The notes below the pieces were generated by a model. It made no database searches. It was not told the DNA's origin and was given only the letters and a program-made list of their open reading frames with translations. A program made the translations under genes and the position numbers. From Gammaproteobacteria bacterium (GTDB lineage Bacteria; Pseudomonadota; Gammaproteobacteria; Eutrophobiales; Eutrophobiaceae): DNA of 64,000 nt. Location of the stretch: NCBI GenBank assembly GCA_963422205.2, contig CAXMWX010000001.1:32001-96000 (forward strand), in the 5' to 3' direction. Positions 33,046-57,514 of this stretch are shown here, piece by piece (the first letter of the stretch is position 1; every line of letters starts with the position of its first letter).

Positions 33046-33106
33046 TTGACATAAGCTGTGCAAGGGTATTTACTTATCGCCTAGTTACTTGCATAAAAAG
33101 ACTAAC
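33046..33106 (+). promoter_or_regulatory. Sigma70-like promoter followed by shared operator copy 1
   Basis: TTGACA (33046), 17 bp, TTTACT; then GTTACTTGCATAAAAAGACTAAC at 33084-33106. Confidence 0.65.
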
Positions 33107-33211
33107 CAGGCAGTGGCATTCTCCACTGTCCCCAGGTGTGAGTCAATGGGCATGAGTCAATGGGTGCAAGTCAACAGCGTTGAACGTATAACTTCAGGAG
33201 GTAAGATAACC

Positions 33212-35482
33212 ATGCAGGCACACAAGCTAACCCTCGCCGCTCTTATCACCACGTGCATCCTCGGCGGGGCACCCGTCAGAGCAGATGACACCGGGGCCGA
33301 TGACCAGGCCGATGAAGCGGCTGTTTTTTTGATTGAGGAGATCACCGTCACGGCGCAAAAGCGCGAGCAATCTGTGCAGGAGGTGCCGATTGCCATCTCG
33401 GCCTACGATGCGCGTACCCTGGAGGCCATCAAGGCGGTCAGTATGGATGATATTGCCATCAGAGTGCCGAATTTTACCATGATGCAATTCAATATTGCCG
33501 AGCCGCGTTATTTCATTCGCGGCCTTGGCAGCAGCTCGGACTCGGCGGGCAGTGATCCCACCGTGGCGGTGTTTTTAGATGAGGTCTATATTGGGCGCGG
33601 TGGGGCATCGAATTTTGATTTTTTTGATCTGGAACGCATTGAAGTGTTGCGTGGCCCGCAGGGGACGCTGTTCGGTCGCAATACTTCCGGCGGCGCCTTG
33701 AGCGTGATCACCAAAAAGCCCAGCCTGGATAGCCGCCATGCGAAATGGCAGGTCGGTTACGGCAACAAGAACGCGGTGGAGGTACGTGCAGTCGGCAATC
33801 TTCCGGTGGCGCTGAATGCGGCTGTCAAGGGCGCAATTTCCTATCGCCGCCGCGATGGCTTCTCCAGGCATATCGAAACGGACGCCGAACTACAGGATGC
33901 GGAGAATATCAGCGGTCGGGCGCAGGCCTTGTTTGAGCCGACTGCTGACACCCGCCTGCTGCTCAGCGCTGACTATGCCCAGGATGACACCAAAGGCAAT
34001 GCCCGCGTGCCTTTTCCGGTGAGTAGCACTGGCAATGCCTTCGCCCCCGCCCTGTCAGCGGCGGTGAATGCGGTCTACCCGCCGGGCAGCAGCGTGCGGC
34101 GATCGTTCTCCAAGCCCGAGTCCTATCAAGACCGGAAGATCTATGGCCTGATGGCACGCCTTGAACATGAGGCCGCCTACGGGCTTTGGACGGCGATCAG
34201 CAGCTACCGCAAAACCCGCTACGGCTGGTTTGAAGACTTATCTACCGCCGCCGGTGCGGGTGGCTTGCTGAACGATGATATCACCGCCGAGAAATCCAGC
34301 CAGCTCAGCGCAGAAGTGCGCCTTGCATCGCTGACAGACAGCGAGGTTCAATGGGTGGCGGGTGCGTATTTTTTAAGCGAAGAGGTGGATCGCAGTGAGC
34401 GGTTTGTGCTTGATTTCCTGTCGCCGTTGTTGGCTTTCAAGGCGCTGCCCTCCCGCAACGGCCCGCCGCTGGATGCCGATGGCGATGTGACCTTCACCCA
34501 GGCGAGCGATAACGACAGCTATGCTGTCTTCGGCCAGCTGACCTGGCCATTGACGGCACAGCTTAGTGTGACTGGCGGCCTGCGCTTCACTCGAGATGAG
34601 AAGGAGATTCATCAGGTGGCGGTGGATAATGCCCAAGATGATCCCAACCCGGGCGTGCCACTGTTCCCTGGTCAGCCCTATGATCTGAATGGTGAGGACT
34701 CCTGGAATGCGCTCACGGGCCGGGCGGGGCTGGAGTACACCACCGCCGCCGGTCATCTGCTCTGGGCGGCGGTTAGCCGAGGTTACAAATCCGGCGTCTT
34801 CCCAAGCCAGAACAACGTATTGCAAAGCGTGAATACGGCATTGGCGCCGGAGAAGGTATGGAACTATGAGGTGGGACTTAAAAGCGACTGGCTGGATGGG
34901 CGCCTGCGCCTTAACGCCACCGGCTTCTACACCGATTATAAAGACCTGCAGCAATTTCTGCTGACGCCGACCTTGATCCTCGTCACCTTCAATGTGGATG
35001 CCCGGATTCTGGGGGCGGAGTTGGAGACCGTCATGGCACCGTTTGCCGGGGTGCAACTGGGCGCCACGGCCTCTTTTATCGACACGGAAATCAAAAACTA
35101 CATGCCCGTTCCCAATCGGCCGATCAGCGGCCTGGCATCGGGCAATGAACTGGCACAGGCGCCCAGGACCTCATTTAACCTGTTCGGCAGCTATGAGACA
35201 CCGCTTGCCAATGGCCTGGCGTCCATGCGGCTGAATTATTCCTGGCGCGATGACTTTTTCAATTCGGTGACCAATCGGGCGGTCAACCTTATCCCCGGCT
35301 ACGGCCTGCTGGATGCTCGCCTTGCCTACCGCTGGGACAACGGCATGGAAATCGCCTTGTGGGGGAAGAACCTGACCGATGCAGAATACCAAAGCCATAC
35401 CATCGGGTTTCTGGGCAGTGGCTTCTCACTCTTTGGCCCGCCCCGAACCTTCGGCGTGACCTTCACGGCGACCTATGATTGA
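33212..35482 (+). CDS. TonB-dependent receptor
   Basis: AGGAGG RBS before ATG 33212, signal peptide, TonB box IEEITVTAQKRE, ERIEVLRGPQGTLFGRN, C-terminal PRTFGVTFTATYD. Confidence 0.95.
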   Translation: MQAHKLTLAALITTCILGGAPVRADDTGADDQADEAAVFLIEEITVTAQKREQSVQEVPIAISAYDARTLEAIKAVSMDDIAIRVPNFTMMQFNIAEPRYFIRGLGSSSDSAGSDPTVAVFLDEVYIGRGGASNFDFFDLERIEVLRGPQGTLFGRNTSGGALSVITKKPSLDSRHAKWQVGYGNKNAVEVRAVGNLPVALNAAVKGAISYRRRDGFSRHIETDAELQDAENISGRAQALFEPTADTRLLLSADYAQDDTKGNARVPFPVSSTGNAFAPALSAAVNAVYPPGSSVRRSFSKPESYQDRKIYGLMARLEHEAAYGLWTAISSYRKTRYGWFEDLSTAAGAGGLLNDDITAEKSSQLSAEVRLASLTDSEVQWVAGAYFLSEEVDRSERFVLDFLSPLLAFKALPSRNGPPLDADGDVTFTQASDNDSYAVFGQLTWPLTAQLSVTGGLRFTRDEKEIHQVAVDNAQDDPNPGVPLFPGQPYDLNGEDSWNALTGRAGLEYTTAAGHLLWAAVSRGYKSGVFPSQNNVLQSVNTALAPEKVWNYEVGLKSDWLDGRLRLNATGFYTDYKDLQQFLLTPTLILVTFNVDARILGAELETVMAPFAGVQLGATASFIDTEIKNYMPVPNRPISGLASGNELAQAPRTSFNLFGSYETPLANGLASMRLNYSWRDDFFNSVTNRAVNLIPGYGLLDARLAYRWDNGMEIALWGKNLTDAEYQSHTIGFLGSGFSLFGPPRTFGVTFTATYD

Positions 35483-35538
35483 GTTTGGGGCGCAGCATTG
35501 CCTGTCACATCCTGCCACAGTCCGCCGTTGGTCAAGCG

Positions 35539-36561
35539 ATGACTGAGGCTATCCCATGCCAGGGGAAGCGGCTGGGTACTCGGCTCAGCCTGCCGCTGAT
35601 CGTAGCGCCCATGTTTTTGGTGTCCGGGCCACAGTTGGTGATCGCCGCCTGTCGTTGCGGCGTCATCGGCAGCTTCCCGGCAACCAATGCGCGCTCGCTG
35701 GCTATCTATGGCGACTGGCTGGAGCAGATCACGCAAGCATTGCAAACAGCATCGCCGCTGGCACCGGCCGAGGCGCTCGCGCCCTGGGCGGCCAATCTGA
35801 TCGTACACAGCTCCTATCGGCGCTTGGCGGCCGAGCTGGCGTTGGTCAGGCGCTATCAGCCGCCCATCGTGATCACCGCCCTGGGCAGCCCGGCGGCGGT
35901 CATCGATAGTGTGCATGCCTACGGCGGCCTGGTGCTTGCCGATGTCAACACTGTGGCGTTTGCCCGCAAGGCGGCTGCGGCCGGGGTGGATGGTCTGGTG
36001 CTGGTGTGCAATGGTGCGGGGGGGCATACGGGCGAGTTATCGGCGTTCGTGTTCGTCTCACAGGTGAGGGAGTTTTTTGATGGCATCATCGTGCTTGCCG
36101 GCGGGATCAGCGATGGCCGGGCTATCCGGGCGGCAGAAGTCCTGGGTGCAGATCTCGCCTACATGGGCACCTCGTTTATCGCCACAGATGAGAGCCTGGC
36201 GAGCGAGGATTATAAAAAGATGGTCGTTGAGGCCGGGCCGGCGGATCTGATGTTATCGTCTGCCTTTACCGGTGCTAATGCGTATTATCTGCGGCAGAGT
36301 ATCGTGCGTACCGGGCTGGCGCCGGATAAATTGCCCACCAGGGATGGGCCCGCCAAGGATGGGATGGATCTGTCCCATGCCGAACAACAGATCAAGGCCT
36401 GGCGGGATATCTGGTCAGCCGGACAGGGAGTGGGCACGGTGGATGGCGTCAGCACAACGGCTGAACTGGTGGCTAAATTCAAGCGGCAGTACGCTGCCGC
36501 CGTGAGTCTGGATAGCAAAGCGATGGATGGGCCCGGTGCTGCCTGCCAGCACTTGAGATGA
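35539..36561 (+). CDS. Nitronate monooxygenase/FabK-like flavoprotein
   Basis: APMFLVS, GAGGHTG, LAGGISDG, YMGTSFIAT, WSAGQG. Confidence 0.88.
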   Translation: MTEAIPCQGKRLGTRLSLPLIVAPMFLVSGPQLVIAACRCGVIGSFPATNARSLAIYGDWLEQITQALQTASPLAPAEALAPWAANLIVHSSYRRLAAELALVRRYQPPIVITALGSPAAVIDSVHAYGGLVLADVNTVAFARKAAAAGVDGLVLVCNGAGGHTGELSAFVFVSQVREFFDGIIVLAGGISDGRAIRAAEVLGADLAYMGTSFIATDESLASEDYKKMVVEAGPADLMLSSAFTGANAYYLRQSIVRTGLAPDKLPTRDGPAKDGMDLSHAEQQIKAWRDIWSAGQGVGTVDGVSTTAELVAKFKRQYAAAVSLDSKAMDGPGAACQHLR

Positions 36562-36661
36562 GCGCTGCGGCAAGCTGCCTGCCATGCCCGTCTGCTCATG
36601 CCTGTGCTGGTGCGATGATGCTGACCGGGCATCTGCTTTGATGAATATACGTACATAAAAG

Positions 36662-38194
36662 GTGGCTGGTATGACGATGAACCCCGAATCGCTGGCGTTG
36701 ACAGCGCGCAGCATCAGAACGACCGATAAAGACGGGCGCCTGCCTCCAGATGCGCCGGACTGGATTTACGGGATTGATAATCCTTACCTGCATGGTTTTT
36801 ATGCGCCTGTAACCAGAGAAGTGCAGGCCAGCGAATTTGCGATCAGCGGGGAGATCCCCTCAGACCTGCATGGTGCTTATGTCAGGAACAGCCCCAACCC
36901 GATGTTCAAGCCGATCACCCCTTATCACCCCTTTGATGGCGATGGCATGTTGAGCGCTGTCGTGTTTCGTGATGGTCAGGTGCTGTCCTATGCCAACCGC
37001 TGGATAGAGACTGCTTCTCTCAAACAGGAAAGGGCAGAGGGCAGGGCCATCTGGCCTGGTGTGATGGGGCCGTATGATTTCTCCCTGCCGTATTTTCCGA
37101 TCAAGGACACGGCCAATACCGATGTGGTCTTGTTCAACAAAGAATTGCTGGCGCTGTGGTATATGAGCGGCGTGCCGTATGCGATTGACCCGGTGACCCT
37201 GCAAACCAAAGGCGCACAGACGTTTAACGGCATGCTGGATCGCAGCATATCAGCGCATTGCCGGGTAGATTTGCACAGCGGCGAGATGCTGTTTTTTCAC
37301 TACGGCGATGAGCCGCCTTATATGGTGTACTATGTGGCCAGTACCGAGGGCAAGATCACCAACCAAGTGGCGGTGGATCTGCCCGGCCCGCGCTCCCCGC
37401 ATGAGATCGGCATCACGCAGCATTACTCCATCCTGCATGACTTTCCCTTCTTTCACGATACGGCTATTTTGCGCCGCCACAACAAGCGGGTGGTGGCTTT
37501 TCATTCGGATATGCCCGCCCGCTTCGGCATCATTCCCCGGCATGGCGGGGCGGATGAGATCACCTGGTTTGCGTGTACGCCTTGTTACATGCTGCACAGC
37601 GTCAATGCCTGGGAGGAGGGCGAGTGGATCATCATGGATGGGTGTCGTTCAACCAATCCCATGCCCAGGCCCAACCGGGACAACGGCGAGTTATCGCACA
37701 TGCTGGCGTACATGGTGGTGGAGGCGAGCCTGTATCGCTGGCGTTTTAACTTGAGAACCGGGGAAGTCAGGGAAGAACCGATCTGTGATCTGAATACCGA
37801 GTTCCCCAAGATCAACCCGCTGTATGTGGGTCGTAAATCAAAATACACCTACATACAGCGCATCCCCAGGGCCGATGAGGGCGGCAAGACCTTGGCCTTC
37901 ACTGCCTTGATGAAGTATAACTGTGATAAGGGTACATATCAGAAATGGGAGTATGGCGAGGGCGTGTACGGCAGCGAGGCGGTCTTTGCCCCACGCAAGG
38001 GCGCCCGCTTGGACGATGCCGAGGACGATGGCTATGTGATCACATTCACCACCGATGCCAACACCTGGCAGTCCGCGTGCTTGATCTTCGATGCCAGGGA
38101 TATCTCGCCCGGACCGATCGCCCGCATCGCCCTGCCGCAGCGTTCAGGATTCGGCTTTCACGCCAACTGGTTGCGCGGCGAGGAGTTGTTTTAA
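36662..38194 (+). CDS. Carotenoid cleavage oxygenase/lignostilbene dioxygenase family (RPE65)
   Basis: RNSPNP, HPFDGDGM, NT motif, four Fe-ligand His (SAH, SPH, MLH, GFH), EFPKIN, EAVFAP. Confidence 0.92.
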   Translation: MAGMTMNPESLALTARSIRTTDKDGRLPPDAPDWIYGIDNPYLHGFYAPVTREVQASEFAISGEIPSDLHGAYVRNSPNPMFKPITPYHPFDGDGMLSAVVFRDGQVLSYANRWIETASLKQERAEGRAIWPGVMGPYDFSLPYFPIKDTANTDVVLFNKELLALWYMSGVPYAIDPVTLQTKGAQTFNGMLDRSISAHCRVDLHSGEMLFFHYGDEPPYMVYYVASTEGKITNQVAVDLPGPRSPHEIGITQHYSILHDFPFFHDTAILRRHNKRVVAFHSDMPARFGIIPRHGGADEITWFACTPCYMLHSVNAWEEGEWIIMDGCRSTNPMPRPNRDNGELSHMLAYMVVEASLYRWRFNLRTGEVREEPICDLNTEFPKINPLYVGRKSKYTYIQRIPRADEGGKTLAFTALMKYNCDKGTYQKWEYGEGVYGSEAVFAPRKGARLDDAEDDGYVITFTTDANTWQSACLIFDARDISPGPIARIALPQRSGFGFHANWLRGEELF

Positions 38195-39774: not shown

Positions 39775-39780
39775 CGGGGT

Positions 39781-41085
<1,305 letters not shown>

Positions 41086-46698: not shown

Positions 46699-48453
46699 AT
46701 GGAAAAACACATCCGCTTCGGCACGTATATCAAGGAAGCCAGCCGCCATCATATTTATCTCAGTTATAATGCCCTGATCCCCAGGTTGACGGCAGATGCC
46801 GCCGGCAATCCCCTGCGACAGCAGGCGGCAAAAGTGCGGTTTCGGCATATTGATATCTACCGCCTGATCATGCCTTATATCCGCCGCCGGCTGTGGGATC
46901 AGATCAAGGCCGTGTTGCCGCTGGCGGTGTATCTGGCCTTGTTCCAGCTTGTCATCTTGCGCCAGGGCGTGGCAGATTACGGGCTTATCACAGGCGGTTT
47001 GATCGCCGTCATCCTGGGTTTGATGCTGTTCATGGAAGGCTTGAAGGTTGGCCTGATGCCATTCGGCGAGAGGATCGGCGCCATCTTGCCGGGGCGCTGC
47101 AAATTACCGGCGGTGCTGATCATCATCTTTATGCTGGGCGTTGGCGTGACCTTTGCCGAGCCGGCCATCGGCGCATTACAGACTGCCGGGGCAATCGTCG
47201 ATGTGAGCTCTGCGCCTTATCTGTACATCCTGTTAAACGATTGGGCGGCGGTGCTGGTGACGGTTGTCGGGATTGGTGTCGGGCTGGCCGCCATCACCGG
47301 TACTTTACGATTTTTATATGGCTGGAGTTTGAAGCCGGTAATTTATGCGACCGTCATACCCACTGTCGGCCTTTCCGTGCATATCATGTTCGATCCTGAA
47401 CTGGCTAAAATGCTGGGGCTGGCCTGGGATTGTGGTGCGGTCACTACCGGCCCGGTCACTGTCCCCCTGGTGCTGGCCTTGGGTATCGGAATCGCTGCAA
47501 CTGCCGGTAAAGCGCATTCATCATTATCAGGCTTTGGCATCGTCACGCTGGCCTCTTTATTTCCCATTCTCGGCGTGCAGCTACTTGCATTGTTTTTATC
47601 AGTGTCCATGACACCGGCCGAGATAGTCGAAAACGTCACGTCCCTTGCGGGTGATGTCAGTCAGCTTGGCTGGTATCAAAAAACTCCCTGGAAGGAGACC
47701 TTGATGGGCTTGCGGGCGATCGTGCCGCTGATCCTGTTTTTATATCTGGTGCTGCGGCTGGTACTCGCCGAGCAAATCAAAAACCGCCTGCTGACGGCCT
47801 ACGGGATCAGTCTTTGCGTGCTGGGGATAATCATTTTTAATATTGGCCTGACGTATGGGCTGAACCATCTTGGTGGTCAGTCCGGTGGGCTGATACCGGC
47901 AGCATTTACCCATATTGAACTGATTGACAATTCACCATTGTACAGCTTCACGATGGGCTTGCTGATTGCCTTTATTTTTGCTTGGCTGCTTGGCTTTGGT
48001 GCGACCCTGGCCGAGCCAGCGCTGAACGCCTTGGGTTTGACCGTGGAGAACCTGACCAATGGGGCGTTTGCCAAGTCGCTGCTGATGTATGCTGTCTCTG
48101 TGGGTGTTGGCACAGGTATCGGGATCGGTATCATGAAGATCATCTTCACGATCCCGATCGCTTGGTTACTACTGCCAGGCTATGCCATCGCATTGGTATT
48201 GACGTATTTCTCTACCGAGGAGTTCGTCAATATTGCCTGGGACAGCGCAGGCGTGACCACCGGCCCGGTCACGGTGCCGCTGGTATTGGCGATGGGGCTG
48301 GGCTTCGGCGATGCCGTCGGGGCAGTGGAGGGCTTTGGTATTTTATCCATGGCATCCATCGGTCCGATCATCTCGGTGATGTGCACTGGCCTGTGGGTAC
48401 GCTGGAAGGTGGAACGGCGGCATAGAATGTCAGCAACAGAGGCCCTGGCATGA
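46699..48453 (+). CDS. Fused double-DUF1538 membrane protein (putative transporter)
   Basis: Two internal repeats, each with AEPA and AWD.(G/A).VTTGPVTVPLVLA.G...GFGI; many TM helices. Confidence 0.82.
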   Translation: MEKHIRFGTYIKEASRHHIYLSYNALIPRLTADAAGNPLRQQAAKVRFRHIDIYRLIMPYIRRRLWDQIKAVLPLAVYLALFQLVILRQGVADYGLITGGLIAVILGLMLFMEGLKVGLMPFGERIGAILPGRCKLPAVLIIIFMLGVGVTFAEPAIGALQTAGAIVDVSSAPYLYILLNDWAAVLVTVVGIGVGLAAITGTLRFLYGWSLKPVIYATVIPTVGLSVHIMFDPELAKMLGLAWDCGAVTTGPVTVPLVLALGIGIAATAGKAHSSLSGFGIVTLASLFPILGVQLLALFLSVSMTPAEIVENVTSLAGDVSQLGWYQKTPWKETLMGLRAIVPLILFLYLVLRLVLAEQIKNRLLTAYGISLCVLGIIIFNIGLTYGLNHLGGQSGGLIPAAFTHIELIDNSPLYSFTMGLLIAFIFAWLLGFGATLAEPALNALGLTVENLTNGAFAKSLLMYAVSVGVGTGIGIGIMKIIFTIPIAWLLLPGYAIALVLTYFSTEEFVNIAWDSAGVTTGPVTVPLVLAMGLGFGDAVGAVEGFGILSMASIGPIISVMCTGLWVRWKVERRHRMSATEALA

Positions 48454-48812
48454 GTCAACAAGACATTGTGGTATTAACCGATGTATCGTTGATCACCTGT
48501 ATTGTGCAACGGGGTCTGGCCGATGATATCGTCCATGCTGCACAGGAAGCGGGCGCACAGGGGGCCACCATCTACCATGCCCGGGGCATTGGCCTTGGCG
48601 AGCGGCTGGGGATCCTGGGGCTGGCTGTTGGGGTGGAGAAAGAGGTCATCAATATCGTCGTGGCGGCAGATCAGGTAAACCGAATATTTGATCGCATGTA
48701 TGTGGCCGGAAAACTGGATACCCCCGGCATGGGCTTTATGTATGTGACGCCCCTGGAAAAAGCAGGCACGTATATCCCCAGGGAAATTGCCGATAAATTA
48801 TTAAATCGTTGA
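48450..48812 (+). CDS. PII-like signal transduction protein
   Basis: LITCIVQRG...GAQGATIYHARG.G...EKEVI...PGMGFMYV; overlaps the DUF1538 stop. Confidence 0.85.
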   Translation: MSQQDIVVLTDVSLITCIVQRGLADDIVHAAQEAGAQGATIYHARGIGLGERLGILGLAVGVEKEVINIVVAADQVNRIFDRMYVAGKLDTPGMGFMYVTPLEKAGTYIPREIADKLLNR

Positions 48813-48832
48813 GGTGTTGGCGGCTGCCTGAT

Positions 48833-49171
48833 GTGAACACACATTCCAAATACAAACTCATCACCTGTATCCTGCCGCATGGCAGGGGTCATGCGGTGAT
48901 GGAACAACTGCAAGAGAAAAACATTTTCACCGCGGCGGTCAATTATGCCCGTGGCTGTGGCAAATTAACCCCGCGGGAATACCGGGGAGCGGGTGAGCAA
49001 ACGGAAAAAGAAATACTTGAAGTTCTCGTCCCGGCCGATGATGCCGCGGCGGTATTTAACTACCTGTATATCGCTGCTGATATAAACCGGCCTCATGGCG
49101 GCCTGATGTATATGGCGGCGCTGGGGCATGCAACCCCGTTTGTTCCCCCTGAGTTGCCGCTCCAGGACTAA
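48833..49171 (+). CDS. Second, divergent PII-like protein
   Basis: KLITCILP.G...YARG.G...EKEILEVLV...INRPHGGLMYM; start GTG 48833 (ORF track gives 48809). Confidence 0.75.
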   Translation: MNTHSKYKLITCILPHGRGHAVMEQLQEKNIFTAAVNYARGCGKLTPREYRGAGEQTEKEILEVLVPADDAAAVFNYLYIAADINRPHGGLMYMAALGHATPFVPPELPLQD

Positions 49172-50343
49172 GACGCAAGACGGCAATTCCCTTGCCTCCT
49201 GCGTATATACCGCTGATCCAGCGCCTGTACCGAGCGACACCCCAGCAGCATAAGCGCCTGCTTGATTTCCTGTTTCAGGATAGCCAGTGCCCGGTCGACA
49301 CCTTGCTCCCCACCAGCCCCCAGACCATACAGATAAGCCCGGCCGATCATAACGGCCCTGGCGCCCAGACACAGGGCTTTCACCACATCGGTGCCTCTTC
49401 TGATACCCCCATCCAGTATCACCTCGGCCTTGTTCCCCACAGCCGCAACAATTTCCGGCAGGATGCCGATGGGCGTTGCCGCATGATCCAGCTGCCGCCC
49501 GCCATGGTTGGAGACGATGATCGTCTTGATGCCTGACGCCACCGCCCGGCGGGCATCATCGGGGTTGAGAATGCCCTTGATGGCAAAGGGCCCCTGCCAT
49601 TGCGCCTGCATCCAGCGGACATCATCCCAGGTAAGGCTCGGATCAAACTGTGAACGGGTATACTGGATCACCGAAAACAAGGCTTCGCTGACATCCGCAT
49701 GTTCGCGGATATTCGCCAGCGCCATCTTCGGTGTCGTGAGGAGGTGCCAGAGCCAGTGCGGGCATCGCAAGGCATCAACAATATTGCGCGGCCCGATCCG
49801 CGGGGGTACGGTAAACCCATTCCTAAGATCACGCTCTCGCTGGCCGGCAGTGGCAAAGTCCACCGTCAGGCACAGCGAGGTATAACCGGCCTCCTTGCAG
49901 CGCTGAATAAATTTTTCTACCAGCTCTCTCTCCCGCCAGACATAGATTTGAAAACAGACCGGGCCACTCGTCTGTGCGGCGAGTTCTTCAATCGAGTATG
50001 TTGCCATTGACGACAGGCTGTAGATCGTCCCCGCCCGATGCGCTGCCCGGGCAACCGCTATCTCGCCCTGGTGATGGAACAGCCGCGACATGCCGGTTGG
50101 TGCCATCATCACGGGCAAGGCGATATCCGTGTTCAGCACCCGGGTCTGCAAGGCGACATCGGCCACATCGACCAGAGAATGCGGCAGGAATTCATAATCA
50201 TTAAAATCATCATGATTACGCCGTAACGTGACCTCATCCCCCGCCGCCCCGTCCAGATAATCAAACACGGCCTGCGGCAAGCGCCGCTTTGCCAGCCGGC
50301 GCAAATCGTCAATATTCAGACAGTGTTCCAATCCTGCTCGCAT
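49168..50343 (-). CDS. FMN-dependent alpha-hydroxy acid dehydrogenase (LldD-like)
   Basis: FDYLDG, APTG, LTVD, SNHGGRQLD, DGGIRRGTD. Confidence 0.93.
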   Translation of the reverse strand: MRAGLEHCLNIDDLRRLAKRRLPQAVFDYLDGAAGDEVTLRRNHDDFNDYEFLPHSLVDVADVALQTRVLNTDIALPVMMAPTGMSRLFHHQGEIAVARAAHRAGTIYSLSSMATYSIEELAAQTSGPVCFQIYVWRERELVEKFIQRCKEAGYTSLCLTVDFATAGQRERDLRNGFTVPPRIGPRNIVDALRCPHWLWHLLTTPKMALANIREHADVSEALFSVIQYTRSQFDPSLTWDDVRWMQAQWQGPFAIKGILNPDDARRAVASGIKTIIVSNHGGRQLDHAATPIGILPEIVAAVGNKAEVILDGGIRRGTDVVKALCLGARAVMIGRAYLYGLGAGGEQGVDRALAILKQEIKQALMLLGCRSVQALDQRYIRRRQGNCRLAS

Positions 50344-50345
50344 GA

Positions 50346-50657
50346 TTAGAAAATTTTCACCCGGCCAGCCAGTATATCCTTAAACATCACCCAATCGCCG
50401 ATCAGGCTGTATAGAGGATAGGTAAACGTGGCGGGCTTGTTTTTCTGAAAAAAGAAATGCCCGGCCCAGGCGCAGCCGTAACCCACCACAGGCAGCAGCA
50501 ACAAGTAGAGGTAGCTGACGGTCAAGAGGCTCACGCCGAGCAGCAGCAAGACCAGAAGTGAGCCGAGAAAATGCAGTCGCCGACAATTTATGTCGCTGTG
50601 TTCGTTAAGATAAAACGGGTAAAATTCGCTGAACGAGGCGTAATTTTTGTCAGTCAT
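50346..50657 (-). CDS. DUF962/Mpo1-like membrane protein
   Basis: FSEFYPFYLNEHS...RRLH...GHFFFQKNKPATF.YP.YSL.GD; start moved to 50657. Confidence 0.88.
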   Translation of the reverse strand: MTDKNYASFSEFYPFYLNEHSDINCRRLHFLGSLLVLLLLGVSLLTVSYLYLLLLPVVGYGCAWAGHFFFQKNKPATFTYPLYSLIGDWVMFKDILAGRVKIF

Positions 50658-50679
50658 CACGGATACGCCGATGTGGGTG

Positions 50680-51753
50680 TTACGAGGGCGCAGGTATGGG
50701 CGTACCTTTACGCAGCAGCAACTCCCGCAGCTGGATAATGACTGGAAAGATCTCCTGGTTCCAGTCCGCCCCCTGCTGGTCAAAGGCCGTTTGCTCCATT
50801 TCCACCACCCATCTGTCTTCGGCAAAGATCCCTTCGGTAAACCAGATGACGAACGGCCACAGCACTTGCATCAGGCCGGGCATGTTTGGTTTGCGGATAT
50901 TCATCAGGCCAAAGGTATGGTTGATGCGTTGCGATTTGTCCACCGGCACATAGGTGATCCATAAATCCAGCGCTGGCTCGGTGCTGCCGGCCGTCCAGAA
51001 TTTAAGCCGCTGGTGCGGGTAATGCGTACTGACGGTCATCAAGTCTTTGGGCCGTCCTGCCGTTGGCGGCGGGCGCCGGCCCAGCATCACCTTCTCGCCG
51101 ATGGGCTGCCTGCCAGTGCGCGAAAACGTATAATCGACCTCCACCCAGTCGCGGCCTTCTCGCAAATCCAAAAAAGCCGTTTGAATCTTCGACATGATGC
51201 CGCGGTGCAGAAACTGATGATTCATGTCCATCAGGTTCTCGTGCAAAAACGAATAATGACAGGCCACCTGTCGATCCAGGTAGCGCGTCTTGTAGTGCTT
51301 GTCATGCCAGGACGGGACATCGGGAAAGGCAGCGGACGCCGACAGCCCCTGATCGCCCGGAAAAATAAAGATCAGGCCGTACTCTTCCCGGCAGGCATAG
51401 GCGCAGACGCCGCGCGGCATGGTCTCGCTCTTGCCCACATAGGGGATGTTGATGCACCTGCCGGTGTGATCATACACCCAGCCGTGGTAGCAGCATTGTA
51501 TGTTCTCGCCGCACACCACGCCTTCTGATAACGGCACCTGCCGGTGGGCGCAGCGATCTTCCAGTGCGAACACCTGGCCTGTCTTTGTGCGTACCAGCAC
51601 GATGGGCTCGCCAGCGAAGCGGCGGCTGATCGCCTTGCCCGGCGTTAAGTCTTTGCTGCGGGCTAATGGATACCAGTGATCCGGGTGTGCGCCTGTTTTA
51701 CGAAGATCACGGCTCACCGCACTGGCGGCGTCCTGCGGCGGGTTGGCTGACAT
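50680..51753 (-). CDS. Rieske non-heme iron oxygenase alpha subunit
   Basis: Rieske motif CAH...CCYH; mononuclear Fe motif ENLMDMNHQFLH. Confidence 0.92.
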   Translation of the reverse strand: MSANPPQDAASAVSRDLRKTGAHPDHWYPLARSKDLTPGKAISRRFAGEPIVLVRTKTGQVFALEDRCAHRQVPLSEGVVCGENIQCCYHGWVYDHTGRCINIPYVGKSETMPRGVCAYACREEYGLIFIFPGDQGLSASAAFPDVPSWHDKHYKTRYLDRQVACHYSFLHENLMDMNHQFLHRGIMSKIQTAFLDLREGRDWVEVDYTFSRTGRQPIGEKVMLGRRPPPTAGRPKDLMTVSTHYPHQRLKFWTAGSTEPALDLWITYVPVDKSQRINHTFGLMNIRKPNMPGLMQVLWPFVIWFTEGIFAEDRWVVEMEQTAFDQQGADWNQEIFPVIIQLRELLLRKGTPIPAPS

Positions 51754-51816
51754 GACGATGCTCTCGTTACATAAAGATGGCGGTCATGTTAGCAGAATAT
51801 GCTGACCATGCCAGGA

Positions 51817-52725
51817 TCATTGTATCAGGCTGGCATGTATCAGTGACAGCATCGTCTCCGGGTTGACAAACCCGCCGCCATGACTTTGATCATAATCATC
51901 GGCATTGGGTTTCAAGGCGATGATCTCCTCAAGCGATTTGCCCGCATCGATTAGCTGTTGCACCCGCTGCTTCAGGGTCTTGAGCATCGCAAGGTAGGCT
52001 TGCAACTCGGCCCGGTCACCGACCGGGCCATGACCGGGGATGATTATGCTGCTCTCATCGGCCATAGCGATCACCTGCTCCACCGCCGCTATCATGCCAT
52101 CGATCGAGCCACCGCTGCCAACATCAATAAACGGGTAGAGGCCATTAAACCAGATATCGCCGGTATGAATGACATTCGCCCTGGTGAAATGGGCCACACC
52201 ATCGCCGTCCGTGTGTGCATTTTTATGATGCAGGACATGCACGACATCGCCATTGAGATGAAACGTCAGGCGATCGTTGAACGTAATCACCGGCAAGGCG
52301 ACCGGCGGTGCGGCCTTGACCTCCCAGCCAAACGGCTTGATCACATGATCCTCTGCCATGCGCCGGCGTACATTATCATGGGCGATAATGAGCGCCCCCT
52401 GCCTGCCAAGATTTTCATTCCCGCCAGTATGATCAAAATGCCAATGGGTGTTGATGACATAGCTGATCGGCGCTGTCGATATTTTTTTTATCGCCGCCAT
52501 GATCTTTGTGGTCAAGGGCGCAAACTGATCATCGATCAGAAAAACACCATCCTCCCCCACCGAGGCGCCGATATTGCCGCCCTCGCCGTACAAGACATAG
52601 AGAGTATCGGCCAGCTTCTCGGTGGTTATCTCTACCTTGGCGAAGTGGTCCTCACCCTTGGCGCCGGCCAGCGATACCCAGCTAATCATCAATAGCAAAA
52701 CCATAGATCTGTAAAAACGCATCAT
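51817..52725 (-). CDS. Exported metallo-beta-lactamase-fold hydrolase
   Basis: Signal peptide, NTHWHFDHTGGN, AHTDGD, HTGD, IPGHG. Confidence 0.9.
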   Translation of the reverse strand: MMRFYRSMVLLLMISWVSLAGAKGEDHFAKVEITTEKLADTLYVLYGEGGNIGASVGEDGVFLIDDQFAPLTTKIMAAIKKISTAPISYVINTHWHFDHTGGNENLGRQGALIIAHDNVRRRMAEDHVIKPFGWEVKAAPPVALPVITFNDRLTFHLNGDVVHVLHHKNAHTDGDGVAHFTRANVIHTGDIWFNGLYPFIDVGSGGSIDGMIAAVEQVIAMADESSIIIPGHGPVGDRAELQAYLAMLKTLKQRVQQLIDAGKSLEEIIALKPNADDYDQSHGGGFVNPETMLSLIHASLIQ

Positions 52726-52881: not shown

Positions 52882-53194
52882 TTATGGCTTATCCGCATAT
52901 TTGATGGTCAATTCATCTTCAAGGCCAAAAAGCTGCAAGGCTCGTTTTATGTTCTGGAATTTGGTCTTGTTATCAGAATGCGCTTCAATGAAATAAGCCT
53001 TATCTAGCTTAACAGCTTGCCTGTATTGTGAATATCATTCTGAATTTTGGTCAATTTGATTTTCTCTGCCAGGCCGCCCCTGGTGTTGGCTGTCAGATTG
53101 GCTTGTTGTTTGGCAATGACCTCATCGGCCTTCGAATGCACAGTGAATGACACGGCCATCGTGACCACGGCAAATAAAAGGTGTATTTTTTCAT
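52882..53194 (-). pseudogene. Frameshifted remnant of an exported protein gene, possibly chimeric
   Basis: AGGAG RBS and ATG 53194; restoring one A in the A6 run gives MKKIHLLFAVVTMAVSFTVHSKADEVIAKQQANLTANTRG...; further shifts downstream. Confidence 0.45.
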
Positions 53195-53317
53195 GGCTTC
53201 TCCTGCTGCAAATATGACGTTATCTTGATCGTTTTGAATTGAGTAAACTTCTGGCATACACACCTCGGCCAGCACCGCCCGTCATTATCCGCCCCGGTGA
53301 TCATGATGCGATGATTT

Positions 53318-53340
53318 TATAGTATTATAATGCAAGTTAC
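53318..53340 (+). promoter_or_regulatory. Shared operator copy 2, overlapping -10-like hexamers
   Basis: AGTATTATAATGCAAGTTAC at 53321-53340 (reverse complement GTAACTTGCATTATAATACT, 16/20 to copy 1); TATAGT and TATAAT overlap it. Confidence 0.6.
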
Positions 53341-53348
53341 TCTATCCC

Positions 53349-54896
53349 ATGGATGTAGAAATGCACCGCTATTATCTCATTGCCCTTGCGCTGCTCTGTC
53401 TTGTTTTGCATAAGGCAAACAGCGCCGTCACAGATTGCCAACTGGCGCCTGTGGCCGGCATCGGCCAGCTTGAAGTTACCGCCGTTGCATCGCCAGCCCT
53501 GCCCGCATTTTGCCAGGTCAAAGGCGTGCTGGAAGGGCGCATACGCTTTGAGGCCCGTCTGCCGCTTGAAGGCTGGAACGGCAAGTTCCTGATGGCCGGT
53601 TGTGGCGGGTTTTGCGGCAGCCTGCTGCCCGACAAGCCGGGCTTCTCCAACAGCATCAACGAAGCGTTGAAAATGGGTTATGCTGCCATCGCCCATGACG
53701 GCGGCCACCGCGGCGCCAGCCACGACACCGCATGGGCTTATCATGACCGCCAGGCATTAGAGATATGGGCACACCGGATACTGCCCATCGTTGCCCGCAA
53801 CGGCAAGGCCATCGTGACGGCGTTTTATGGCCGCCCGCCTGCGCTGTCCTATTTTTCCGGTTGCTCTAACGGCGGTCGCCTGGGGCTGATGGCGGCACAA
53901 CGCTACCCGCAGTTGTTTGACGGCATCCTCGCCGGCGCTCCTGTCTTTGATTTGTCCGGCAATGCTGGCATCTACGCCGCCTGGAAGGCACAGCAGCTAT
54001 ACCGGGCCGATGGGACACTGCGCCTGGGGCAGGAAAAAATTCCCTTGCTGAAATCTTACGTGCTGAGGCAATGCGATGGCCTGGATGGGTTGGCCGATGG
54101 CATCATCGCCGCGCCCGGGCGGTGCCAGGTCGATCTGTCTACCTTGCGCTGTCGGCCCGGCGTACCCGCCGATGATTGCTTGTCTGGTGGACAAATCACG
54201 CTGTTGAACAGGCTGTATCACGGGGTAAGTGATAGCAAAGGCGAGCGCCTGTACCCCGGCATATCCTATGGCTCGGAACATTACTTCGCCACCTGGATCA
54301 TCGGCAAGCCGGGGCAACCGGCCTGGGGTACGCTGGCCGGGCAGGGCTACCTTAATCTGGTCAATGAGATGGCGCCTGATCAGCACTATGCCATGCACCG
54401 TTTCGATGTCGATAAAGACCCTGAGTTGTTAAGAGAACACCCGCTGGCGGCGATGATGGATGCCACCAGCACGGATCTGTCGGCCCTGGTGGGCGCAGGA
54501 ACAAAATTGATTATCTGGCACGGCTGGTCAGACCCGCTGATCCTGCCCAAACGCACCGTGGATTACTACGAGGCCATCGCCCGCAAGCTGGGCGGCATGG
54601 GCAGGGCCAGGGAGCGTGTGCGCCTGTTTCTGCTGCCGGGGCATGGACACTGCTGGCGCCAAGCCGCCGAGGCGCCGGATCAGTTTAATCCGATCCAGCT
54701 ACTGGCAGATTGGGTTGAATCCGGCAGCGCCCCATCGCAATTTATCGCCCACCAGCAAGATGCCGCCGGGAACACCCTGCGCTCACGGCCGATATGCGCC
54801 TATCCCGCCGTAGCGCGATATCAAGGCACAGGCGATATGAATGATGCCGCCAGTTTTGTTTGTGAAATCAACGGCAATTCATCATTGGCAAAGTAG
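53349..54896 (+). CDS. Tannase/feruloyl esterase family alpha/beta hydrolase, exported
   Basis: WNGKF, GCSNGG nucleophile, CDGLDGLADGII, HGWSDP, PGHGHC; signal peptide. Confidence 0.93.
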   Translation: MDVEMHRYYLIALALLCLVLHKANSAVTDCQLAPVAGIGQLEVTAVASPALPAFCQVKGVLEGRIRFEARLPLEGWNGKFLMAGCGGFCGSLLPDKPGFSNSINEALKMGYAAIAHDGGHRGASHDTAWAYHDRQALEIWAHRILPIVARNGKAIVTAFYGRPPALSYFSGCSNGGRLGLMAAQRYPQLFDGILAGAPVFDLSGNAGIYAAWKAQQLYRADGTLRLGQEKIPLLKSYVLRQCDGLDGLADGIIAAPGRCQVDLSTLRCRPGVPADDCLSGGQITLLNRLYHGVSDSKGERLYPGISYGSEHYFATWIIGKPGQPAWGTLAGQGYLNLVNEMAPDQHYAMHRFDVDKDPELLREHPLAAMMDATSTDLSALVGAGTKLIIWHGWSDPLILPKRTVDYYEAIARKLGGMGRARERVRLFLLPGHGHCWRQAAEAPDQFNPIQLLADWVESGSAPSQFIAHQQDAAGNTLRSRPICAYPAVARYQGTGDMNDAASFVCEINGNSSLAK

Positions 54897-54964
54897 CTCT
54901 TGAGTATCAAAATCTGATTGGCTAACATGTATACCATTATTGGCAATTAATTTGAGTTAAATGG

Positions 54965-55663
54965 ATGACCGGGCACTTATTAGATAAGAAAAAAATTACT
55001 GGCTATACAATCTATAACGCTGAACAGCATCGCAGAACAGTTAAAAATAATTTGCCAGATTGCTACCCTGCTCTTCCTCAGAAAAGATATGATGTAATTT
55101 ATGCAGATCCTCCGTGGGATTACGGTGGCAAGATGCAGTTTGATAAAAGCAGCAAATCTATTGATAAAATCGATCTAAGTAAAAATATTTTCATTAGTGC
55201 AGCAAATTTTAAGTACCCGACGATTAAAATTAAAGATCTAAAAAATATCCCTGTCTATGAAATTGCCAAAAGTAATTGCCTCCTGTTTATGTGGGTAACG
55301 AATCCACATCTTGCACAAGGAATTGAATTAGGCCAGGCATGGGGGTTTGAATATAAGACTGTTGCTTTTGTATGGGACAAGATGGTGCATAATCCTGGTC
55401 AATATACATTGTCGTATTGTGAACTATGCTTATTGTTTAAAAGAGGGAAAATACCATCCCCCAGGGGTGCTAGGAACATTAAGCAACTTGTACGTGTAAA
55501 ACGAACACATCACAGTGAAAAACCACTTCTTGTGCGAGAAGGTATTGAAAAAATGTTCCCTACACAAGAAAAAATAGAACTATTCTCAAGAAGTAAACCG
55601 AAAAACTGGGATGTTTGGGGACTAGATGTAGAAAAAATTTATAAAAGTGAAAAAATTATCTAA
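54965..55663 (+). CDS. MT-A70-family N6-adenine methyltransferase (M.MunI-like)
   Basis: YADPPW, LLFMWVT, WGFEYKT, HSEKP, IELFSR; AT-rich; convergent with the REase. Confidence 0.9.
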   Translation: MTGHLLDKKKITGYTIYNAEQHRRTVKNNLPDCYPALPQKRYDVIYADPPWDYGGKMQFDKSSKSIDKIDLSKNIFISAANFKYPTIKIKDLKNIPVYEIAKSNCLLFMWVTNPHLAQGIELGQAWGFEYKTVAFVWDKMVHNPGQYTLSYCELCLLFKRGKIPSPRGARNIKQLVRVKRTHHSEKPLLVREGIEKMFPTQEKIELFSRSKPKNWDVWGLDVEKIYKSEKII

Positions 55664-56259
55664 ACCAATATTGGTTCTATATGTTTAAAGAAATGTTCAT
55701 ATAGCGGGGCTGGGTCGCCAGCATTCCGCCAGAAGAAAAAGTGGCCTTCCCTATTATGATACCAGCAGGTTACCTCTCTTGCCCTACAGGGGTCTCTTGT
55801 GATATTGCCTTGAAAAACAGTCCAAAAGGGAAGCGCATCATCATTAATGTTACCTTTCTCTCGAAGAATCTTTAGAAGCCCGGGGGCGAAGAACTTGCAT
55901 GATCTTTCGTGGGCATTGCCACGACCATCTGAACGCTTGCCTCCTTCTACCCAGCCGTCTTGGCGTTTGACCTCTACATACATGGTTTTCTCTGTTTCGG
56001 TATTATCTATTGCATAATCAGGGAAAACACCATGTTTGGTTATCGTTTCTGGCGGGTTGTATATTTCACTTTTTACTTGCTCTGAAAGTTCAACATCAAG
56101 ATAAATTTTGCTAAATTCTTTTGGTTTAGCTCGTATTGTAAATTCCGTATCAGCAAACAAAGTTTGAAAAGCCACCAGGAAATCATTTTCCGCAGCACTG
56201 GCATTTCTTCCGCTGTAGTGTTGCCATTTTCTCCTCAGACGATTATCTGTGCTTCCCAT
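55660..56259 (-). CDS. Type II restriction endonuclease, MunI-like (MunI cuts CAATTG)
   Basis: PDYAIDN...EVKRQDGWVEG...GRGNAHERSCK..PGLL...LPFW.VF.G.ITRDP closely recalls MunI. Confidence 0.88.
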   Translation of the reverse strand: MGSTDNRLRRKWQHYSGRNASAAENDFLVAFQTLFADTEFTIRAKPKEFSKIYLDVELSEQVKSEIYNPPETITKHGVFPDYAIDNTETEKTMYVEVKRQDGWVEGGKRSDGRGNAHERSCKFFAPGLLKILREKGNINDDALPFWTVFQGNITRDPCRAREVTCWYHNREGHFFFWRNAGDPAPLYEHFFKHIEPILV

Positions 56260-56508
56260 TATTCATTGATCCTCAGCAAGGTAGAAAGTGATACATTCAA
56301 CGCTTTAGCAATTTGATAAACATTAAGAAGAGTAATATTCTCCAGCTCCCCGTTCTATCATGCTGTAATAGGTGCGATGAAGCCCAGCCTTATCCGCAAG
56401 CTGTTCCTGAGATAAGCTTTGCGCTTTTCTTGTGCTGCGGACTCGGCTTCCGAAAGAGGATAAAATTTTCTCATCTTTATTTTTCACGGTGTTCTCTCTA
56501 AGTCGCAT
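56259..56508 (-). pseudogene. R-M controller (C) gene with a +1 frameshift
   Basis: FGSRVR...SQEQLADKAGLHRTYYSMIERG, then a shift; the other frame continues NITLLNVYQIAKALNVSLSTLLRINE* with a TAATG overlap onto the REase start. Confidence 0.8.
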
Positions 56509-56520
56509 CGCATTAGATAA

Positions 56521-57429
56521 CTAAGGCCGTTGAAACTTCACCTCATGCGGTCTTAGTGTTGTCAGACATTCGCTGCACACCACGCGGGCGCGCAATCGGC
56601 GTTTGCATGGCGTGTGTGTTAAGAGCAGCGGCGCCTTGCCGGGTGCGGCCAACCAGCGATCGCCCCATTGCAACATGGCGATGATTGACGGGTACAGGTC
56701 GATGCCAGTGGCCGTCAACACATATTCATGCCGTGGGGGCCGGGTCTGGTATTGACGCCTTGCCAGCAGATCGCTTTTGACCAGCCGCTTGATACGATCG
56801 GTCAGTATATTCGTTGCTATTTTTTGCTGTTTACGCATCTCATCAAACCGGCGGATGCGAAAGAAGGCCATCGCCAGAATCAACGCCGCCCAGCGATCGC
56901 CCAGGATATCGCACATCGTATACAGATCTGCCCCGATTTCCTTGGAACGGCGTGTACGCTGGGGGGCGCAGCGGGACTCATAGCCAGCCCCCGGGCCGTC
57001 TTTATAGCGAACATCGTACGCACTTAACTCGCCCCCGCAATGTGAGCACACCATAAGCGGCTGCATCAACTGGCCACAGGATTGATGGTACAGGCTGCGG
57101 GGGTGTGCGATCCGGTGGCGGTGCCAGCGCTCCTCCCAGCACCACCCCATCAGGGCGCAGGGGTAGAGTTCCCGCCCCATCCGGGTCAGGTGATATTCAT
57201 AGCGCCTTGGTCGGTCATGGTAACGTGTTCTGTGCATCAAGCCGTTTTTTAGCAGGTGTTGCAAGCGGTTGCTCAAGGTACTCCTGGCGGTGGCCATGCT
57301 CGCCTGCCACTCGCCAAAGCGCTTTACCCCGACAAAGGCATACTCCAGGATGATCAAGGTGGTGCGGTCGCCGATGATGCCGAGGGCGCGATACACCGAG
57401 CTGGCCTGGATCTGATTCTTGAGCGCCAT
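56521..57429 (-). CDS. Tandem double-HxlR winged-helix transcriptional regulator
   Basis: Two repeats of (I/L)GDR...RF...L..R...RP.R.EY.LT..G..LYP...W..RW, each followed by H-x2-C...C-x2-C. Confidence 0.9.
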   Translation of the reverse strand: MALKNQIQASSVYRALGIIGDRTTLIILEYAFVGVKRFGEWQASMATARSTLSNRLQHLLKNGLMHRTRYHDRPRRYEYHLTRMGRELYPCALMGWCWEERWHRHRIAHPRSLYHQSCGQLMQPLMVCSHCGGELSAYDVRYKDGPGAGYESRCAPQRTRRSKEIGADLYTMCDILGDRWAALILAMAFFRIRRFDEMRKQQKIATNILTDRIKRLVKSDLLARRQYQTRPPRHEYVLTATGIDLYPSIIAMLQWGDRWLAAPGKAPLLLTHTPCKRRLRARVVCSECLTTLRPHEVKFQRP

Positions 57430-57464
57430 GGCAGCACCATACTGACTTGGACGAAAACCGCAAT

Positions 57465-57514
57465 TTGTATCTCTGCCGGACGGATGCTATAGTCAGTCTT
57501 TTTATGCAAGTCAC
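57465..57514 (+). promoter_or_regulatory. Sigma70 promoter immediately followed by shared operator copy 3
   Basis: TTGTAT (57465), 17 bp, TATAGT (57488, extended TGn); AGTCTTTTTATGCAAGTCAC at 57495-57514, whose reverse complement is 19/20 identical to copy 1. Confidence 0.72.

Follow-up and report, generated by a model that had tools for sequence, protein, structure and literature searches.

A 64-kb stretch of a gammaproteobacterial contig (CAXMWX010000001.1), called the window throughout, contains three similar 20-bp sequences, here S1, S2 and S3. They lie beside genes of uptake and catabolism and beside the gene of a regulator made of two HxlR domains. The locus raises the questions of whether the three sites form one regulon, which protein reads them and in which direction, and what the genes facing them might do together. 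A preliminary description, drawn from the letters of the DNA alone, had proposed a single regulon under the tandem-HxlR protein. Our own answer, to which we assign a probability of about three in four, is that S1–S3 are operators of a tandem-HxlR repressor controlling the uptake and CoA-dependent breakdown of a hydrophobic compound.

Three putative operator sites in intergenic spacers

All three sites were recovered at the positions, and with the mutual similarity, first reported for them. Each is listed as the 20-bp site and as a match to the 23-column weight matrix described below.

33084-33103, plus strand: S1, GTTACTTGCATAAAAAGACT; matrix match 33084..33106, plus strand, 33.8 bits
53321-53340, minus strand: S2, GTAACTTGCATTATAATACT, identical to S1 at 16 of 20 positions; matrix match 53318..53340, minus strand, 30.9 bits
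57495-57514, minus strand: S3, GTGACTTGCATAAAAAGACT, equal to S1 with one mismatch and an identical 17-bp core; matrix match 57492..57514, minus strand, 31.5 bits

Each site falls in a spacer by open reading frame (ORF) and Pfam layout, as had been claimed. S1 is in the spacer 32917-33211, between an SCPx-type thiolase operon on the minus strand and a plus-strand operon for a TonB receptor, a nitronate-monooxygenase-like flavoprotein (NMO) and a carotenoid-cleavage oxygenase (CCO). S2 is in the spacer ~53196-53348, 9–21 bp upstream of the tannase ATG codons at 53349 and 53361. The spacer of the divergent double-HxlR gene, to which one site had been ascribed, is that of S3 (57430-57589), with the regulator gene on its minus side and a thiolase–lipocalin–CoA ligase operon on its plus side. 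S3 is 63–85 bp upstream of the regulator start, so that the motif stands at the regulator's own gene.

With up to three mismatches to S1 allowed, S1 and S3 were the sole matches in the window, and none of 100 dinucleotide-preserving shuffles contained two matches. The core ACTTGCAT-N6-ACT, with 11 specified bases, occurs exactly three times in the 64 kb, against a naive expectation of ~0.03 by our own arithmetic. The weight matrix used to score the window was built solely from sites of other genomes; because it was seeded with the core pattern of the window, its core columns are circular. Columns outside the seed were conserved as well: T at -2, W at 8, A at 9, A at 12, G at 13 and A at 18. 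After S1–S3, the best match of the matrix anywhere in the window scored 17.9 bits and lay in a low-GC island, and at 1-33 kb and 38-53 kb, where housekeeping genes lie, no match exceeded 18 bits. A motif frequent at unrelated sites would have spoken against the regulon; within the 64 kb it is not frequent, with three strong sites in all.

Conservation of the motif in other genomes

Species-representative genomes were searched with a profile of the regulator family, and the best 80 of 592 stretches (L001-L080; 1.376 Mb) were compared. These loci were picked solely by similarity to the 302-aa regulator, and the relatives that they encode are 31–45% identical to it. They come from Alpha- and Gammaproteobacteria, among them Halieaceae, Porticoccaceae, Woeseiaceae, Caulobacterales, Sphingomonadales and Rhizobiales.

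The core ACTTGCAT-N6-ACT was present in 35 copies in 29 of the 80 loci, where 0.66 copies were naively expected. A first weight matrix, applied at a threshold of 12, drifted to A+T-rich noise (74 control matches), so thresholds of at least 20 and at least 24 bits were used. The iterated 23-column matrix, with motif nTnACTTGCATAAnnAGACTnAn, then gave 187 sites in 71 of the 80 loci at 20 bits or more, against 3 in the reversed-sequence controls; at 24 bits or more the numbers were 126 and 0. The consensus of 112 unique strong sites is nTnACTTGCATAAntAGACTtAn, and it does not differ between the 39 loci that have window-type genes and the others. Its dyad is weak, with a reverse-complement self-similarity of at most 0.40.

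By crude ORF calls, 153 of the 187 sites (82%) are intergenic, whereas intergenic DNA makes up ~9% of the loci. Site numbers drop away from the regulator gene, with 40, 24, 27, 17 and 15 in successive 2-kb bins. Ninety-four sites are in divergent spacers, and the median distance from a site to the start codon it faces is 55 bp. Orientation is mixed, 64 sites pointing the same way as the nearest gene and 81 the opposite way. Of 85 regulator genes, 23 have a site within -350..+30 of the start.

The motif is thus conserved across these genomes and associated with recurring genes. Comparative genomics defines a regulon by a motif that recurs, far above background, before orthologous genes of several genomes, and that pattern was found here. 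Conservation upstream of homologues had been proposed as a check on the operator, and the 187 sites against 3 control matches answer it in the operator's favor.

Two arrangements at the regulator genes were noted. Six loci of Bradyrhizobium type (L019, L022, L027, L040, L045, L047) have two motif copies 22–23 bp apart before the regulator, ~170–200 bp upstream of its start at 10001 or 2303; the pairing hints at two molecules on one helix face. Six others (L002, L006, L007, L046, L051, L078) have two or three paralogous tandem-HxlR genes in a stretch of 20 kb, and their clusters are all rich in sites, with as many as 8 at 18 bits or more in L002.

Genes facing the sites

First genes facing a site in the 80 loci (n=228) were classified with Pfam in two batches, at thresholds of 1e-5 and 1e-12. 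Their counts, by group, were as follows.

Window-type: HxlR 23, TonB receptor 20, RPE65 14, AMP-binding 11, NMO 7, ACAD 5, ordinary thiolase 4, SCPx-type thiolase 3, tannase 3
Other recurring: DUF1295 13, SnoaL_2/LEH 10, SDR 8, ECH 7, luciferase-like 5, DapB_N-like 5, MFS 5, SnoaL_4 4
Mostly Rhizobiales: Peripla_BP_6 18, FAD_binding_5 11, CoxG 8, ABC_tran 5
Remainder: Amino_oxidase 2, other 12, no match 25

Homologues of the window proteins were also located in the loci by tblastn with the window's own proteins. Both window clusters were represented beside the regulator in 30 of the 80 loci, and at least three window families in 29. Cultivable bacteria that are candidate carriers of the whole cluster are Parahaliea mediterranea DSM 21924 (L011), Maricurvus nonylphenolicus KU41E (L052) and Caulobacter or Brevundimonas isolates (L005, L017, L065). 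A site was present at most 400 bp upstream of the homologue of the TonB receptor in 19 loci, the CCO in 12, the CoA ligase in 7, the SCPx-type thiolase in 6, the thiolase in 4, the tannase in 4 and the NMO in 3. The APH kinase and histidine phosphatase homologues each had such a site in one locus (L068 for the kinase, where the Pfam scan found it too). These sites, together with the co-clustering of the homologues, are the strongest support for treating the separated window loci as one functional unit, as the preliminary description had done.

Bradyrhizobium-type loci have a regulon of their own composition: a Peripla_BP_6/ABC transporter, a CoxMSL-like flavoprotein, CoxG, an enoyl-CoA hydratase and a CoA ligase.

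A regulator with two HxlR domains

The gene whose own spacer holds S3 encodes the following protein.

56521..57429, minus strand: tandem (double) HxlR regulator, 302 aa, with PF01638 matched in two stretches

PF01638 scores 130.4 bits over the two stretches, against a cutoff of 20.8, and the halves are 33% identical (E 1e-27). In each half a winged helix-turn-helix (wHTH) domain is followed by a small beta module with an invariant H-x2-C...C-x2-C. The invariant residues, H115, C118, C128 and C131 in the first half and H272, C275, C285 and C288 in the second, are present in all 33 aligned sequences, and no N-terminal Cys is among the invariant columns. To judge by these residues the modules look like putative zinc sites, structural or sensing. 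The putative recognition helices are unlike each other between the halves and near-invariant across the family (ARSTL-x-x-RL and IATNILTDRL). AlphaFold2, run on the family alignment, returned a model with pLDDT 89.6 and pTM 0.87 in which two winged-helix units are each followed by a small beta module; at this pTM the predicted domain arrangement can be taken as confident.

The fusion is not confined to this genome. At E<=1e-3 there are 277 relatives of near-equal length, the nearest 61–69% identical and the others at most 49%. A profile of 33 relatives matched, at E<=1e-30, the representatives of 824 clusters formed at 50% identity, and the best 150 of the 824 are nearly all 300–350 aa long and align with the profile over its whole length. 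Proteins with the fusion thus form a sizeable family, and the window protein is no local accident.

Sequence and structure searches found no tandem HxlR form in the Protein Data Bank (PDB). Its matches to the regulator were single-domain HxlR proteins only, one half at a time, the best being PA1607 (2f2e) and PA1374 (4gcv) of Pseudomonas aeruginosa and HypR; with Foldseek, each half aligned on single HxlR chains at TM-scores of 0.78–0.83, normalised to the target.

Known members of the HxlR/DUF24 family, such as HxlR, YodB and HypR of Bacillus subtilis and QsrR of Staphylococcus aureus, have the same winged-helix domain as both halves of the regulator. They differ in being single-domain subunits of ~100–170 aa, where the window protein has two diverged copies in one chain, each with its invariant H-C-C-C module, and a site of weak dyad. 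The known members are homodimers on dyad-symmetric sites, and YodB, QsrR, HypR and HxlR have an N-terminal sensor Cys. With 302 aa in a double domain, a weak dyad and no invariant N-terminal Cys, the regulator stands outside the usual HxlR/DUF24 architecture.

We propose that the tandem HxlR protein would bind S1–S3 as a single chain folded into an intramolecular pseudo-dimer. One molecule would occupy each asymmetric site of ~21 bp, T-n-ACTTGCAT-A-A-n-n-AGACT-n-A, and contact it through two different heads. Such a working principle has a precedent in MarA, SoxS and Rob, in which one chain with two non-identical helix-turn-helix (HTH) heads reads an asymmetric 20-bp marbox in either orientation at many promoters. 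The likeness is one of working principle alone, for the folds are unrelated (AraC-type HTH against winged helix) and there is no homology; moreover, MarA, SoxS and Rob are activators of stress regulons.

For the layout of the regulon, a parallel is KstR/KstR2, TetR-type regulators with one palindromic operator at many dispersed or divergent operons for steroid uptake, CoA activation and beta-oxidation-like steps, including SCPx-type thiolase-like and NMO-family enzymes. Those systems differ from the window in regulator family, in the palindromic operator and in having a known substrate. Among the window gene assignments we saw no KstR-type gene and no steroid ring-cleavage genes.

Promoters and the direction of regulation

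A simple sigma-70 scan called one promoter near S1, TTGACT-17-GAGAAT at 33146-33118 on the minus strand, with S1 just downstream of its -10. It called none overlapping S2 or S3. By eye, S2 contains TATAAT (53327-53332), TATAGT (57489-57494) directly precedes S3, and TTGACA-17-TTTACT lies ahead of S1 on the plus strand; all three fail the rules of the scanner. The -10-like hexamers of the preliminary description thus exist, and the repressor geometry read from them is plausible; the scan, which supplied only the minus-strand promoter near S1, lends that geometry no support at the other two sites.

The sites coincide with the likely -10 or start points of divergent promoters or follow them closely, so repression is the most likely mode, and we rate it roughly twice as probable as activation. 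The repressor would be released by a metabolite of the pathway.

Two further features of the S1 spacer were examined. A sigma-54 promoter was considered since TTGCAT resembles a -12 box, and was rejected by eye because S1 lacks a correctly spaced GG element. Past S1 and before the TonB-receptor gene, at 33139-33166, the 12-bp sequence TGAGTCAATGGG occurs twice without change, as direct copies 14 bp apart, and the related CAAGTCAAC follows. Read on the minus strand these give a series of TTGACT boxes, and one box supplies the -35 of the promoter-like site 33146-33118. TRF reported no tandem repeat near S1 at a score of at least 30, and the 12-bp copies are visible by eye only.

Points against the reading, and competing explanations

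Several results weigh against a tandem-HxlR repressor of one catabolic pathway, or narrow what can be said for it. No window catabolic family was found in 37 of the 80 loci; many of the 37 are Rhizobiales, in which the sites face ABC-transporter, Mo-flavoenzyme and CoxG genes. As these loci have another gene set under the same operator, the family evidently controls more than one pathway. The 80 loci omit the window species, the rest of its genome and its nearest relatives, those with regulators 61–69% identical. The pseudo-dimer geometry is inferred, Foldseek having aligned one half at a time. The mixed orientation of the sites speaks neither for nor against repression. For the oxygenase, NCBIfam scores are nearly equal for two kinds of substrate (253 bits for apocarotenoid, 245 bits for lignostilbene), and both are far below their cutoffs. 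To these must be added the lack of a called promoter over S2 and S3, the activator name of a relative and the way the loci were chosen, each of which bears on a particular alternative.

The alternative that survives best keeps the same sites and the same binder and makes the protein an activator, as B. subtilis HxlR is at hxlAB; the PDB record of that protein names it 'HTH-type transcriptional activator'. Promoters at S2 and S3 that escape the sigma-70 scan could be weak and activator-dependent. The positions of the sites argue the other way, since S2 ends 9–21 bp before the tannase starts and has TATAAT within it, S3 abuts TATAGT, S1 is just downstream of the minus-strand -10, and class I or class II activators usually bind farther from the start codon than the 55-bp median found here. 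We consider activation unlikely.

In another alternative the regulon would answer electrophile or aldehyde stress in the manner of YodB, QsrR and HypR, serving unrelated detoxifying enzymes and not one pathway. HxlR/DUF24 proteins with solved structures are, by their record names, sensors of redox state, quinones or formaldehyde, eight Cys and His residues are invariant in the family, and NMO-like flavoproteins and SDRs among the targets could reduce reactive compounds. The targets are nonetheless mostly genes of uptake and CoA-dependent catabolism (TonB receptor, CoA ligase, two thiolases, ACAD, ECH, oxygenase), and the catabolic genes are physically clustered in 30 of the 80 loci. The invariant Cys residues, moreover, belong to the modules after each wHTH domain, and none is N-terminal. 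A stress response of this kind is improbable.

More improbable still is that another transcription factor or an alternative sigma factor reads the motif, with the tandem HxlR gene merely one of its targets. A site directly upstream was found for a minority of regulator genes (the 23 of 85), LysR and other regulator genes are among the facing genes, and every locus was selected through the regulator, so that another linked factor may always travel with these clusters. Yet no regulator gene other than that of the tandem HxlR protein adjoins any of the three window sites; the motif stays constant across regulators of 31–45% identity whose recognition-helix residues are invariant; and an asymmetric 21-bp site suits a single chain of two domains. 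A sigma-factor element in particular is disfavored by the mixed orientation, the 55-bp median and the 94 sites in divergent spacers.

Sites that are short, A+T-rich and intergenic might also be alike by chance, or be copies of a small mobile or repetitive element that regulates nothing. The probability of this is vanishingly small given the shuffles, the differing flanks of the three window copies, the conservation at homologous promoters in two proteobacterial classes and the failure of any Rfam family to reach its gathering score in 28000-64000. An RNA element was rejected on the same lack of Rfam matches in 28000-64000.

Genes of the window

The genes on either side of the sites are listed by position; every Pfam-level assignment of the preliminary description was reproduced.

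28421-29446, minus strand: ACAD11-type kinase (APH), by Pfam and ACAD11 similarity
29467-30678, minus strand: ACAD11-type acyl-CoA dehydrogenase (ACAD), by Pfam and ACAD11 similarity
30686-31381, minus strand: histidine phosphatase (Pfam His_Phos_1)
31684..32916, minus strand: SCPx-type (Thiolase_C_1) thiolase by Pfam, first minus-side gene at S1
33212..35482, plus strand: TonB-dependent receptor with plug and beta-barrel domains, first gene of the S1-facing operon
35479..36561, plus strand: NMO/FabK-like FMN flavoprotein (PF03060, 93.5 bits)
36662..38194, plus strand: CCO-family enzyme of the RPE65 fold (PF03055)
53349..54896, plus strand: exported tannase/feruloyl-esterase-family hydrolase (PF07519)
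54965..56259: low-GC restriction-modification (R-M) insertion, MT-A70 methylase (plus) and MunI-type endonuclease (minus), by Pfam
57590-58801, plus strand: thiolase, first gene of the S3-facing operon (57590..61103)
58798-59232, plus strand: Lipocalin_5 protein, S3-facing operon, by Pfam
59409-61103, plus strand: acyl-CoA ligase (AMP-binding), S3-facing operon, by Pfam

Pfam thus places the kinase, dehydrogenase, phosphatase and SCPx-type thiolase all on the minus side of S1. The thiolase scores 637 with NCBIfam PRK06289, against a cutoff of 375, and is the sole window protein tested that passes a curated cutoff. A 302-bp gap separates it from the phosphatase; the gap has no minus-strand terminator, no promoter and no motif match of 8 bits or more, and the phosphatase/ACAD/kinase block is possibly co-transcribed with the thiolase across it. 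An SDR (FabG-like) gene at 27503-28318 on the plus strand is convergent with the end of the block and has no site upstream.

The tannase matches PF07519 at 360 bits over profile positions 10–489 of 490, a full-length family domain. Its N-terminus, read by eye from the translation, is hydrophobic and signal-like, and the true start is likely the ATG at 53361, followed by a signal peptide. From the minus side, S2 is faced by a small ORF, 53004-53195, whose start resembles a signal peptide (…LLFAVVTMAVSFTVHSKA…). An A-run puts the ATG upstream of it, at 53195, one base out of frame; to judge by the letters, the ORF may be either a frameshifted small exported protein or one with a GTG start.

Between the S1 genes and S2 is a 15-kb gap (38.2-53.0 kb) with ispD, eno, a DAHP-synthase-family gene, pyrG, fhs, tag and others, and the first 28 kb of the window likewise hold housekeeping genes. 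PyrG has no match above 78% identity in the protein collection searched, the named matches being gammaproteobacterial. The 1.3-kb R-M stretch between tannase and regulator looks like an insertion outside the regulon; GC is 0.40 at 55001-56000. A second R-M island, with an N6_N4 methylase and a ScaI-type endonuclease, is at 23276-24719, and the GC of both islands is 0.35–0.40. The catabolic genes are split by housekeeping genes and by an R-M insertion just as had been described; the count of three dispersed loci, by comparison, reduces to two, as the tannase and the regulator are parted solely by the insertion.

Two other groups of genes were noted. At 49168-52725, the minus strand has an operon of four genes, for a metallo-beta-lactamase-fold protein, a Rieske/VanA_C oxygenase, an Mpo1-like 2-hydroxy-fatty-acid dioxygenase and an FMN-dependent 2-hydroxyacid dehydrogenase. 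Among NCBIfam models the Rieske oxygenase scores highest with 4beta-methylsterol monooxygenase, at 173 bits against a cutoff of 600, and the gene content suggests an alpha-oxidation or demethylation module. The operon starts ~600 bp from S2. The 80 loci contained no homologue of its four proteins, which gives its membership of the regulon no support, and it is left unassigned. At 46699-49171, on the plus strand, a DUF1538 membrane protein gene is followed by two 120-aa ORFs, of which the first alone matches P-II (35.6 bits); these are unrelated to the operator finding.

Substrate and pathway

The oxygenase matches PF03055 at 414.7 bits over profile positions 1–468 of 469. Its PDB matches rank carotenoid 9,10-dioxygenase (9m6z, CCD1-like) first at 270 bits, before VP14 (205), NOV1 (192) and LsdA (166). 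It shares the whole RPE65 fold with 9m6z, and four of its His residues, which we take to be the iron ligands, align with four of that enzyme. It differs from known CCOs in falling far below every NCBIfam equivalog cutoff and in being encoded with a flavoprotein in a TonB-receptor operon. The preliminary description had left the substrate among apocarotenoid or terpenoid, stilbene and hydroxycinnamate ester; a carotenoid or apocarotenoid type is favored by PDB similarity and stilbene or hydroxycinnamate less so, while the near-equal NCBIfam scores leave the choice open.

The minus-side operon offers a second clue. Its ACAD matches residues 374–769 of ACAD11, the dehydrogenase domain, at 445 bits (best match outside the ACAD11-like group, 122), and its APH protein matches residues 22–352, the kinase domain, at 272 bits. 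Both domains of mammalian ACAD10/ACAD11 thus have counterparts, with the difference that the window pair is in separate adjacent genes, not fused, and beside a His_Phos_1 phosphatase gene; its activity is predicted only. Among bacteria, the Lva operon for levulinate offers another parallel. By these similarities the operon would encode a split ACAD11-type 4-hydroxyacyl-CoA kinase/dehydrogenase pair. ACAD10 and ACAD11 are reported to phosphorylate 4-hydroxyacyl-CoAs and eliminate the phosphate, giving entry to beta-oxidation (PMC12440821, PMC11342911). The pair points to 4-hydroxy acid intermediates, which fit the opening of an ester or lactone by the tannase-family enzyme.

FabK is the best NCBIfam match of the NMO, far below its cutoff; by analogy with the NMO/FabK family, the flavoprotein may be an ene-reductase acting on a conjugated double bond. 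The SCPx-type thiolase presumably suggests 2-methyl-branched substrates.

Taken with the preferred reading, in which the tandem HxlR protein is a repressor, the sites would distribute control as follows. On one side of S1 it would govern the TonB receptor, the NMO-like flavoprotein and the CCD1-like cleavage oxygenase, and on the other the SCPx-type thiolase and possibly, behind it, the phosphatase with the ACAD11-like dehydrogenase and kinase. Through S2 it would govern the exported tannase-family esterase, and through S3 the regulator itself together with the thiolase, the lipocalin-like protein and the acyl-CoA ligase. The pathway would run from outer-membrane uptake through ester or lactone hydrolysis, oxidative C=C cleavage and CoA activation to 4-hydroxyacyl-CoA rescue and beta-oxidation, including that of branched chains. 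Its substrate would be a hydrophobic compound, probably isoprenoid or apocarotenoid-like.

A bolder version, which we hold only tentatively and think rather doubtful, is that the operator marks a widespread, uncharacterised pathway for mineralisation of carotenoid derivatives, under a single-chain pseudo-dimeric winged-helix repressor, of a class not described before, whose two zinc-ribbon-like modules would take part in sensing an intermediate. TonB-dependent uptake, periplasmic ester or lactone opening, CCD1-like cleavage, CoA activation, ACAD11-type rescue and methyl-branched beta-oxidation would then be its successive steps.

Implications

The regulator architecture and the regulon are real and widely conserved, and apparently undescribed. 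The literature searched, to which subscription-only papers and regulon databases did not belong, yielded no description of tandem HxlR regulators, of the motif or of the gene cluster, in keeping with the novelty first claimed for them; nor did it offer one of such a cluster for consumption of carotenoids or isoprenoids.

A covalently duplicated HxlR protein with two invariant reading heads and an asymmetric operator would be a distinct family architecture. With the operator as a handle, any genome can be searched for the regulon and its members. It ties, in Gamma- and Alphaproteobacteria of marine and fresh waters, a carotenoid-cleavage-type oxygenase to genes for uptake, an esterase, a CoA ligase, thiolases and 4-hydroxyacyl-CoA metabolism. 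Bacterial consumption of carotenoid- or isoprenoid-derived material is poorly mapped, and the regulon makes the question directly testable.

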